A DNA stretch of 6,123 nt from a virus. Taxonomy: Duplodnaviria; Heunggongvirae; Uroviricota; Caudoviricetes. Positions 5,637 through 6,123 of this stretch are shown here, in pieces. The notes under the pieces were generated by a model that had not been told where the DNA came from, did no database searches, and saw only the letters and a program-made list of their open reading frames with translations. The stretch lies in the IMG/VR virus record IMGVR_UViG_2537561689_000012, one strand, 5' to 3'. The first letter of the stretch is position 1, and each line of letters begins with the position of its first letter. The position numbers and the translations under genes are program-made.

Positions 5637-5669
5637 CACGCTCTCAAATGTACCTTTTGCAACATCGTA

Positions 5670-5698
5670 TTGACTCGAAAGGTAACTCTTGTTACCTT
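5670..5698 (+). promoter_or_regulatory. Putative PL-like promoter with embedded operator O3: -35 TTGACT (5670-5675), 17-bp spacer, -10 TACCTT (5693-5698); operator GTAACTCTTGTTAC at 5682-5695
   Basis: Same architecture as the PR-like promoter: -35 TTGAC(A/T), operator in the spacer, and a -10 TACC(A/T)T that starts at the T-A-C of the operator's distal half-site. Third copy of the GTAAC-N4-GTTAC palindrome, extended to GGTAAC...GTTACC. Confidence 0.5.
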
Positions 5699-5879
5699 AA
5701 CGGCATACCAACCCACCCCGCCCCACAGAATGCAGGGCAATACTTCGAGTTACCAGGCAGTGGTCAGGGGTTAAGTAGCCAGCCCGAGGCGTAAGAACAT
5801 GACGGCAGGGTTCAACTTTAATAACTATGCAGCAGGTTTTTGTTCCGCTACCCCGGCGTTAAGGGGAAATGAGGTCAGC

Positions 5880-6123
5880 ATGGATACTATCGATCTTGGC
5901 AACAGCGAATCTCTGGTATGTGGCGTGTTCCCCAACCAGGACGGTACGTTCACCGCGATGACGTATACCAAAAAGCAAAAACGTTTAAAACCGAAAATGG
6001 TGCCCGTCGCTGGCTGGAAAGAAACTCAGGTGAGTGATATGGATTTCGACACAATCATGGAAAAGGCTTACGAAGAATACTTCGAAGGTCTTGCCGAAGG
6101 CGAAGAAGTTCTCAGCTTCAGTG
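5880..6123 (+). CDS. Hypothetical protein, 3' end beyond window; first gene downstream of the PL-like promoter (alternative in-frame start ATG 5799)
   Basis: ATG 5880 preceded by SD GAGGT 5 nt upstream. Frame is open to the window end (MDTIDLGNSESLVCGVFPNQDGTFTAMTYTKKQKRLKPK...EGLAEGEEVLSFS). The same frame is open from 5775, with ATG 5799 (SD GAGG nine nt upstream) as a possible longer start. No recognisable family by eye; not lambda-N-like (no Arg-rich N-terminus). Confidence 0.55.
   Translation, partial: MDTIDLGNSESLVCGVFPNQDGTFTAMTYTKKQKRLKPKMVPVAGWKETQVSDMDFDTIMEKAYEEYFEGLAEGEEVLSFS

Follow-up and report, generated by a model that had tools for sequence, protein, structure and literature searches.

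We analysed the right-hand end (positions 5640–6123) of a 6,123-nucleotide virus sequence, IMG/VR record IMGVR_UViG_2537561689_000012, which as a whole is called the window below. This region follows a repressor gene and carries a predicted promoter with an operator, a structured leader RNA and the genes ydfA and ydfB, all on the plus strand. The whole window matched four chromosomes of the enterotoxigenic Escherichia coli (ETEC) type at 99.9%, over 6,120 and not 6,123 bases, and its DNA identity to annotated ETEC chromosomes was 99.6–99.9%. In the near-identical genomes the prophage adjoins rspB, and the genes after the repressor are ydfA (DUF1391), ydfB, ydfC, dicB, DUF1482, exonuclease, excisionase (xis) and integrase (int), which is the order of the dicBF operon in the Qin prophage of E. 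coli K-12. DicF RNA was detected between ydfC and dicB in the near-identical locus L002 (76.7 bits), outside the window. We conclude that an ETEC-like E. coli carries here a lambdoid prophage of the Qin/Rac type, integrated at rspB, and that 5640–6123 is its early-left control region together with the first genes; we put the probability of this explanation as a whole at about 0.8.

The repressor gene is followed by an intrinsic terminator (5611–5637; stem AACCCGCA/UGCGGGUU, loop UUCAU, U-run), whose fold of −18 kcal/mol (z −5.35) was equalled in stability by none of 200 shuffles. Downstream we read from the sequence a putative sigma-70 promoter of the early-left (PL) type at 5670–5698, with the −35 element TTGACT (5670–5675), a 17-nucleotide (nt) spacer and the extended −10 element TGT-TACCTT (hexamer 5693–5698). 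A simple consensus scan omits this promoter because its −10 matches the consensus at three of six positions only. The TTGAC of the −35 is invariant here across four phages with unrelated operators, and K-12 Rac has TTGACA-17-TATAGT at the same position. Spacer and −10 are overlapped by a perfect 16-bp palindrome, the putative operator OL (GGTAACTCTTGTTACC, 5681–5696), which agrees with GGTAAC-N4-GTTACC at 12 of 12 positions. Two sister palindromes lie in the cro/cI intergenic region, one at 4870–4885 (11/12), overlapping the −10 of PR, i.e. of the cro promoter that the scan detected, and one at 4918–4933 (10/12). Three sites scoring at least 10/12 in the window compare with 0.26 expected (maximum of two in 200 shuffles), and the three exact matches to GTAAC-N4-GTTAC all fall within these two control regions.

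As the palindrome overlaps the promoter, the natural reading is that the repressor would bind it and silence the operon in the lysogen, with expression on derepression. In K-12 Qin, DicA represses dicBp, with a 22-fold difference in a dicBp reporter, and the dicBp transcript start lies upstream of ydfA (bioRxiv 10.1101/2023.04.14.536235). After derepression, transcription in the window would start at ~5705, and the structured leader RNA would thus form the extreme 5′ end of the transcript. The sequence-only reading of this DNA had proposed a cI terminator, an operator-bearing promoter and a leader in this order. We found the terminator, a promoter-like site with a perfect palindrome and two sister sites, and a leader of ~175 nt before ATG 5880. 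That reading took the leader for a C-rich spacer; it proved to be a conserved structured RNA instead.

In a search of phage genomes, 5703–5869 matched several phages separately from ydfA. The leader, ~165 nt long, stands after three different repressor genes and operator sets in the phages Evi, vB_EcoS-683R6 and vB_EcoS-689R5, where it precedes three different first genes, and its conservation starts exactly at the predicted transcription start (CAUACC...). K-12 Rac has a copy between racR and ydaG. K-12 Qin keeps only the last ~38 nt, from ~5842. The recombination junction at which its DicA immunity module meets the module of ydfA falls inside the leader; the retained end in Qin (locus L003, ~2970–3008, against window 5842–5880) is GUUCCGCUACCCCAGCGUUAAGGGG plus the Shine–Dalgarno (SD) sequence. 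Pattern scans brought the total to well over 250 loci, including more than 120 IMG/VR loci in each of two overlapping scans, and 48 metagenome contigs carried the leader. It was also found in Serratia, Superficieibacter, Candidatus Arsenophonus, E. ruysiae and Shigella genomes and in 3,705 of 5,426 (68%) complete E. coli genomes, with up to seven copies.

Each immunity region has one copy. Two contigs hold two tandem immunity regions, each with a repressor gene and its own leader (L159, 108–278 and 1965–2135; L279, 7806–7911 and 9735–9841). A full-length leader core was also detected in the T7-like Serratia phage Kaonashi (43.4 bits, E 4.5e-10; L009, 2970–3070), the sole lytic phage found, where it sits in a 1.2-kb non-coding early region.

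No annotation lay beneath the leader copies among the matches listed for complete E. coli genomes. A search against Rfam 15 found nothing in the leader at E ≤ 1, and five divergent loci gave no hit across the element either; a Trp_leader match (22 bits, E 0.12) was merely the cI terminator. Searches of the literature available to us for the invariant motifs and for the ydaG untranslated region (UTR) returned nothing relevant. The prophage small RNAs AgvB/AsxR/EcOnc and Pas of enterohaemorrhagic and enteropathogenic E. coli were considered and set aside, being encoded at different loci (PR′ moron or late region), and their Rfam models give no match. The Rho terminator t_rac was likewise rejected as a counterpart of the leader; it lies inside racR, upstream of the element. 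At the K-12 Rac locus (L140, 2906–3003), the current RefSeq annotation includes a small RNA, KilS, which lies upstream of kilR within this early-left operon. These results give good support to the conclusion that the leader is a widespread, conserved structured RNA, which appears not to have been described before.

The structured core occupies 5704–5806 and consists of a C/A-rich 5′ tail of ~10 nt, a long hairpin (P1) and a central block, with the predicted +1 at ~5705. A covariance model of this segment (R1) scored 111.6 bits and found it as the sole copy in the window. In the R1 alignment of 99 distinct sequences, 85.8% of the cells were paired, compared with 28–43% in slid controls. Double-sided changes occurred in 16 of the 22 pairs, and the 242 compensatory cells compare with 67.7±6.3 in shuffles, none of 500 reaching the observed value.

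Hairpin P1 (5715–5771) is built of the stems P1a (5715–5719/5767–5771), P1b (5723–5726/5760–5763) and P1c (5731–5737/5753–5759), with an AGAA bulge at 5727–5730, and is closed by the conserved loop CAAUACUUCGAGUUA (5738–5752), which contains a mini-stem (5739–5741/5749–5751). Nine divergent variants, folded independently by minimum free energy, shared one architecture for this first domain. An internal loop separates an outer from a middle stem; a GAA-rich bulge on the 5′ side and an inner stem of seven positions come next, capped by a conserved loop of 15 nt, CAAUACYNNGAGUUA, in which AAU and GUU form a mini-stem. More than 40 sequence combinations preserve the inner stem, such as UGCAGGG/CCAGGCA, CACGAAG/CUUCGUG, CGCUGAG/CUCAGUG and AACCGGA/UCUGGUU. 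In a 29-nt segment anchored at the loop, which leaves no alignment freedom, all seven variable pairs showed double-sided changes, compensatory cells numbered 81 compared with 27.4±4.2 after shuffling (0/500), and 82.5% of cells were paired compared with 16–44% with slid partners. This loop-anchored test and the independent folds are free of model-fitting bias. A U·G pair is kept in 97 of the 99 sequences, indicating that the transcribed strand is the folding strand.

The central block (5772–5806; alignments A4 and A6) is near-invariant, UAAGUAGCCAGCCYGAGGCRUAHGAACAUGACGGC. It includes a tentative hairpin P2 (5778–5780/5788–5790), whose pairs never vary, so that covariation is uninformative there, and the motif GAGG-N9-AUG, whose AUG is ATG 5799. 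Neither GAGG nor AUG varies, even in the divergent locus L148, and the open reading frames (ORFs) opened by this AUG run from 4 to more than 27 codons without keeping the frame; in Rac-type variants, the mini-ORF stop lies in the loop of hairpin P4, just before the next start codon. The second, variable domain (5807–5866) contains a weak and tentative hairpin P3 (outer pairs 5805–5807/5828–5830), a GUUC at 5842–5845 that may pair with GAAC at 5795–5798, both being invariant, and P4 (5851–5854/5863–5866) directly before the SD sequence, with double changes in three of four pairs; the numbers are small and support is modest. For this domain, RNAalifold run on the MAFFT alignment yielded no consensus.

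Several observations weigh against this account of the promoter and the leader. The −10 hexamer at 5693–5698 is weak by consensus (3/6), the full-length pair counts rest on a model-fitted alignment of related sequences, and the second domain is poorly supported. The single-sequence folding energy of the leader is unremarkable (z +1.15), and this score alone would have missed it. RNAalifold on plain MAFFT alignments likewise gave a weak or empty consensus, which we attribute to stems lying out of register and which the loop-anchored and model-based alignments resolved.

The next feature is the ORF at ATG 5880, preceded by the SD sequence GAGG (5871–5874) five nt upstream, as the sequence-only reading had it; in near-identical genomes, RefSeq starts ydfA at exactly this ATG. 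The same reading described a single ORF with an acidic tail running beyond the window, and took it for an unidentified gene and the best candidate for something new. The ORF is instead made up of two known genes, ydfA and ydfB, present in thousands of genomes, whose frames are joined by a frameshift private to this sequence. Its translation from 5880 runs MDTIDLGNSESLVCGVFPNQDGTFTAMTYTKKQKRL...DMDFDTIMEKAYEEYFEGLAEGEEVLSFS. As it stands, the ORF matches Pfam DUF1391 at 1.2e-14 over residues 2–32 only, the profile scoring 54.1 bits (cut-off 27.3) over positions 1–31 of 48. The native C-terminus of YdfA (KTFKTENGARRWLERNSGE, then stop) is encoded in another frame (frame 3), and the native stop TGA (6035–6037) is out of frame in the disrupted ydfA (5880–6037). 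The acidic part is YdfB, whose first 28 codons (6039–6123, with their own ATG at 6039) reach the window edge and are identical to WP_000344968, ‘protein YdfB’; it is in frame with ATG 5880 solely through a +2 shift.

The shift arises at AAAAA-GC-AAAAA (5970–5981), where the references have AAAA-GC-AAAA. The two A-runs (5970–5974 and 5977–5981), with five A's each where the references have four, are the sole differences from E. coli 602354 and 504237 over 5560–6123, and they join codons 1–31 of ydfA, via 22 out-of-frame codons, to ydfB. Without the two extra A's, the product is WP_000379589, YdfA. None of the 5,426 complete E. coli genomes had the double-A variant. With a 101-nt probe spanning the site, 3,552 records were matched, the best full-length matches being 98.0% identical with both gaps present. 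The exact 34-mer across it was found neither in the GTDB species representatives nor in IMG/VR, and the fused protein, from either start codon, was not found among ~15 billion proteins. Intact YdfA was found on at least 1,000 contigs and the exact 42-amino-acid YdfB on 108.

A third extra A lies at 1374 (AAACAAGC instead of AAACAGC in four reference genomes) and truncates orfA of the IS3 copy (1334–1630 region) after 17 codons; it is the sole further indel in the window, and the IS3 transposase is annotated as intact, with its programmed frameshift, in the reference genomes. Since each of the three A insertions destroys a frame that four independent genomes retain, the extra A's in ydfA are most likely homopolymer errors of sequencing or assembly, and we hold this with good confidence. 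A genuine private mutation in the source, the point that speaks against this explanation, is improbable in our view. The strain would then make a YdfA′-YdfB fusion, as the net +2 puts ydfB in frame, or −1 slippage on C-AAA-AAG (5969–5975) would restore a near-native YdfA; by inference from the sequence, such a slip would yield ...TYTKKAKTFKTENG... and the native C-terminus. This would require two independent homopolymer insertions 7 nt apart, in a window in which a third breaks IS3, and a slip site that has neither a stimulatory structure nor conservation, and the variant is absent from all the collections named above.

Still less probable is that the first gene starts at ATG 5799 and encodes an N-terminally extended YdfA, as annotated in phage vB_EcoS-689R5 and as the sequence-only reading had allowed. 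This ATG is in frame with 5880 both in the window and in 689R5, and the PHROG 751 profile has 19 additional N-terminal positions. However, indels that are not multiples of three lose the frame in Rac-type and other variants, K-12 ydfA lacks the region, with homology to it starting only at ~5842, the stretch is conserved in the manner of an RNA and not of codons, and RefSeq uses 5880. We therefore rejected ATG 5799, which lies inside the conserved leader core with its frame to 5880 not kept. A lambda N-like antiterminator was rejected as well: the product had been described as unlike lambda N, and indeed neither YdfA nor YdfB has an arginine-rich motif at its N-terminus, the ORF being DUF1391 plus YdfB.

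YdfA and YdfB belong to PHROG 751 and PHROG 2061, both of unknown function. A profile search, named in the earlier reading as a check, led to a known Pfam family, and the PDB held no match for either protein. PADLOC profiles gave no match for YdfA, YdfB or the fused ORF. The gene order expected of YdfA/YdaF, namely first or second place after the repressor, followed by ydfB/ydfC and a division inhibitor, was found in the near-identical loci L001 and L002, in K-12 Qin and in K-12 Rac. Several phage records (among them ON470583, ON470580 and PV340562) label DUF1391 genes ‘head-DNA stabilization protein D’. This label is probably a propagated misannotation, since its sole basis that we found is a non-significant similarity to a head decoration protein (E 0.32).

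The proposed placement of the gene in an early-left slot was borne out, as the region is the start of an early-left operon beside the repressor. The accompanying suggestion of exclusion or defence cargo did not hold for the gene in the window; it applies at the operon level only, outside the window, to dicF and dicB. The downstream sequence, which had been named as a check, reads ydfC-dicF-dicB-ydfD-exonuclease-xis-int in near-identical genomes, and DicB is reported to give protection from infection by phages (PMC6832061).

What precedes and follows the leader elsewhere bears on its function. In most variants, the −10 of a sigma-70-type promoter ends 34–40 nt before the conserved loop, which puts +1 ~10 nt before the first stem. 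In a subgroup designated ‘F’ (Arsenophonus and related contigs), boxA CGCUCUUUAAC and boxB UCGCU-GAAAA-AGCGA come after the core. Both match those of lambda (checked on the lambda genome), and an N-like protein with an arginine-rich N-terminus is encoded next. In other subgroups, 42-amino-acid arginine-rich peptides or YdfA/YdaG-type genes come next, and in Kaonashi a boxA-like CCGCTCTTTAATAA lies ~145 nt downstream of the core (L009, ~3213–3226). The leader is thus found after unrelated repressor and operator modules, before different first genes, and with or without N. We conclude that it is a module at the 5′ end of early transcripts made by the host polymerase, independent of immunity type, N and first gene. 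In loci L196, L143, L141, L228 and L157, the first gene after the leader encodes a very arginine-rich peptide of 42–45 amino acids (e.g. MNIRQFRRAQRLAQKARAQNSSKKWDAANRIMARA...). This peptide recalls the motif with which N proteins bind RNA, and it may be a mini-N whose target would be the neighbouring P4 hairpin.

We tentatively propose that the leader controls elongation of the early-left transcript in cis, through the transcription complex that makes it or through Rho/Nus factors. On derepression, the transcript would begin at ~5705 with the leader RNA; the nascent leader would then enable the long, initially untranslated transcript to escape premature termination. In function it would be comparable to putL or to the partner of a nut site, without being homologous to either. 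The proposal is based on the position at +1, where the putL RNA of HK022 also begins, on the repeated association with boxA and on the known Rho dependence of operon silencing; in the early-left operon of Rac, the lethal kil gene is kept silent by Rho-dependent termination (PMC4150792). The near-invariant unpaired nucleotides suggest a conserved host partner.

The same proposal has to accommodate that the leader seems redundant where N and nutL are present, that it has no similarity to put in sequence or architecture, that intrinsic terminators downstream in the operon show no excess over chance, and that the invariant GAGG-N9-AUG in the core could indicate a translational role. It is conceivable, though doubtful at present, that the leader is the first member of a new class of phage RNAs on early transcripts. 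Such RNAs would act on RNA polymerase, Rho or Nus and license the early-left operon, including toxic kil/dicB, and temperate lambdoid phages, whether or not they have N, would share them with at least one T7-like phage that is lytic.

The main rival carries a similar weight and is likewise no more than possible. The leader may act after transcription, with P1 as a processing site of the RNase III type or the core as a device for ribosome loading or a leader ORF, setting the stability or translation of the first early-left genes. P1 is an irregular hairpin of ~20 bp, of the type that RNase III cleaves, and RNase III sites are present in the lambda N leader and in T7 early leaders. RNase III affects transcript levels of K-12 ydfA, although K-12 Qin lacks the core. 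However, RNase III needs no strict conservation of loop or linker sequence, and a 10-nt single-stranded 5′ tail speaks against a simple protective hairpin. For translation, the invariance of the SD-like GAGG and the AUG even in L148, and the Rac-type mini-ORF, whose stop falls within the P4 loop immediately ahead of the next start codon, are set against a mini-ORF of 4 to more than 27 codons whose frame is not kept, and against a first gene that varies between phages.

Two further readings are less likely than these. It is unlikely that the leader, or a 5′ fragment processed from it, uses its C/A-rich 5′ tail to work in trans, as a small RNA or a sponge. A C/A-rich single-stranded tail does start all types, and prophage anti-sRNAs (antagonists of small RNAs) such as AgvB act as sponges in trans (PMC4104026). 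Nevertheless, no terminator follows the element, the tail sequence differs between types while the structured core is conserved, and the known prophage small RNAs are at other positions and their Rfam models give no match. A ligand-sensing, riboswitch-like aptamer gating early-left expression is very unlikely: the 5′ UTR position, the conserved unpaired nucleotides in a multi-helix fold and the variable 3′ ‘platform’ would suit one, but no pseudoknot or junction was identified, no Rfam riboswitch matched, and there is no association with metabolic genes.

The gene claim is minor, as ydfA and ydfB are catalogued and functionally obscure; the long acidic ORF, very probably an artefact of assembly, would lead annotators astray. 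The leader, at ~100–160 nt, forms the predicted 5′ start of early-left transcripts in thousands of prophages, K-12 Rac among them, and the operons that it heads encode cell-division toxins (KilR, DicB, DicF), recombination functions and int/xis. If it is a new cis element, it bears on long-range early transcription in lambdoid phages without N and on how the toxins of cryptic prophages stay off or switch on. Its loss from K-12 Qin dicBp, the best-studied homologue, may explain why it was overlooked.

From left to right, the window contains istB of IS100, an IS3 copy, minus-strand genes, the plus-strand repressor gene and the region studied. The minus-strand genes are a DUF977 gene, an O-like replication gene with iterons, a YdaT-family gene in the cII position and a cro of the P22-Cro type. 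The repressor gene (4924–5607, plus strand) is of the cI type and belongs to the LexA family, with HTH_3 (helix-turn-helix; Pfam 2.1e-16) and Peptidase_S24 (9.9e-17), and is labelled ‘LexA family protein’ in near-identical genomes. Its start is ambiguous: the RefSeq ATG at 4891 overlaps the −35 of the cro promoter, and the alternative ATG at 4924 lies inside the operator copy at 4918–4933 and would give a leaderless or near-leaderless mRNA, like that of lambda cI. Within the O-like gene, repeated CGTGACA/TCGTGAC motifs and a tandem ATCTTTATCTGT repeat (3655–3745 and 3960–4010) look like origin iterons. In positions 1–2530, IS3 and IS100 cut off the right arm of the prophage after the DUF977 gene, whereas in strain 602354 IS100 sits inside the DUF977 gene, which indicates that the prophage has been degraded differently among close relatives. 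The sole base substitutions relative to the best-matching ETEC genomes, at 486 and 709, are both inside IS100 istB and may reflect a different IS copy or repeats collapsed in assembly.

Comparison with known systems places the leader as follows. The lambda PL-nutL-N leader has the same position on the genome map. The leader in the window (5704–5880), unlike it, has no boxA (CGCUCUUA-like) or boxB, and its operon has no N-like gene; the likeness to boxA CGCUCUUUAAC, to boxB UCGCU-GAAAA-AGCGA and to an arginine-rich N-like protein is confined to the ‘F’ subgroup at other loci. Just before boxA, the lambda PL leader carries CCAUGAAGGUGACG (L283, minus strand, ~565–545). In the N-type subgroup, the central block has a similar sequence at its 3′ end (ACAUGAAGGCAAGUGACG); this likeness may be chance or a remnant. 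Neither the lambda genome (best score 1.4 bits) nor that of HK022 contains the leader element.

Like HK022 putL, the leader is a structured RNA at the start of the PL transcript of a lambdoid phage, the start being predicted in the window. The E. coli-type phages with the leader have no annotated N gene and, to our knowledge, HK022 has none either. A homology to put was suspected by eye (GGCxGGGUUCA...AUGCxGC) and ruled out by a shuffle test, in which alignment to putL/putR stayed within the shuffle range (p 0.05–0.97) and the control, putL against putR, was clear. Rfam holds no put model, so the Rfam null is uninformative on this point. The architectures differ as well, with two stems in ~70 nt in put compared with a 57-nt three-segment hairpin plus the central block here, and the window has no second leader copy on its PR side.

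K-12 Qin (dicA/dicBp/ydfA-ydfB-ydfC-dicF-dicB-ydfD) shares with the window the integration on the rspB side, the gene order from ydfA onward, DNA identity in the 95% range from ~38 nt upstream of ydfA, and a repressor gene immediately upstream, the Qin promoter being repressed by Qin's own repressor. In contrast to the window, with its LexA-family helix-turn-helix and S24 repressor, that repressor is DicA and the operators differ; Qin lacks the structured leader core, and the ydfA of the window carries the +2 frameshift. K-12 Rac (racR/ydaG-ydaF...kilR) differs in its repressor RacR and its operators, in having ydaG before the DUF1391 gene, and in its downstream toxin, which is kilR and not dicB. 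What the two share is the leader RNA (109.8 bits), which in Rac lies directly after a near-consensus promoter downstream of racR, and a DUF1391 gene, ydaF, that follows it.

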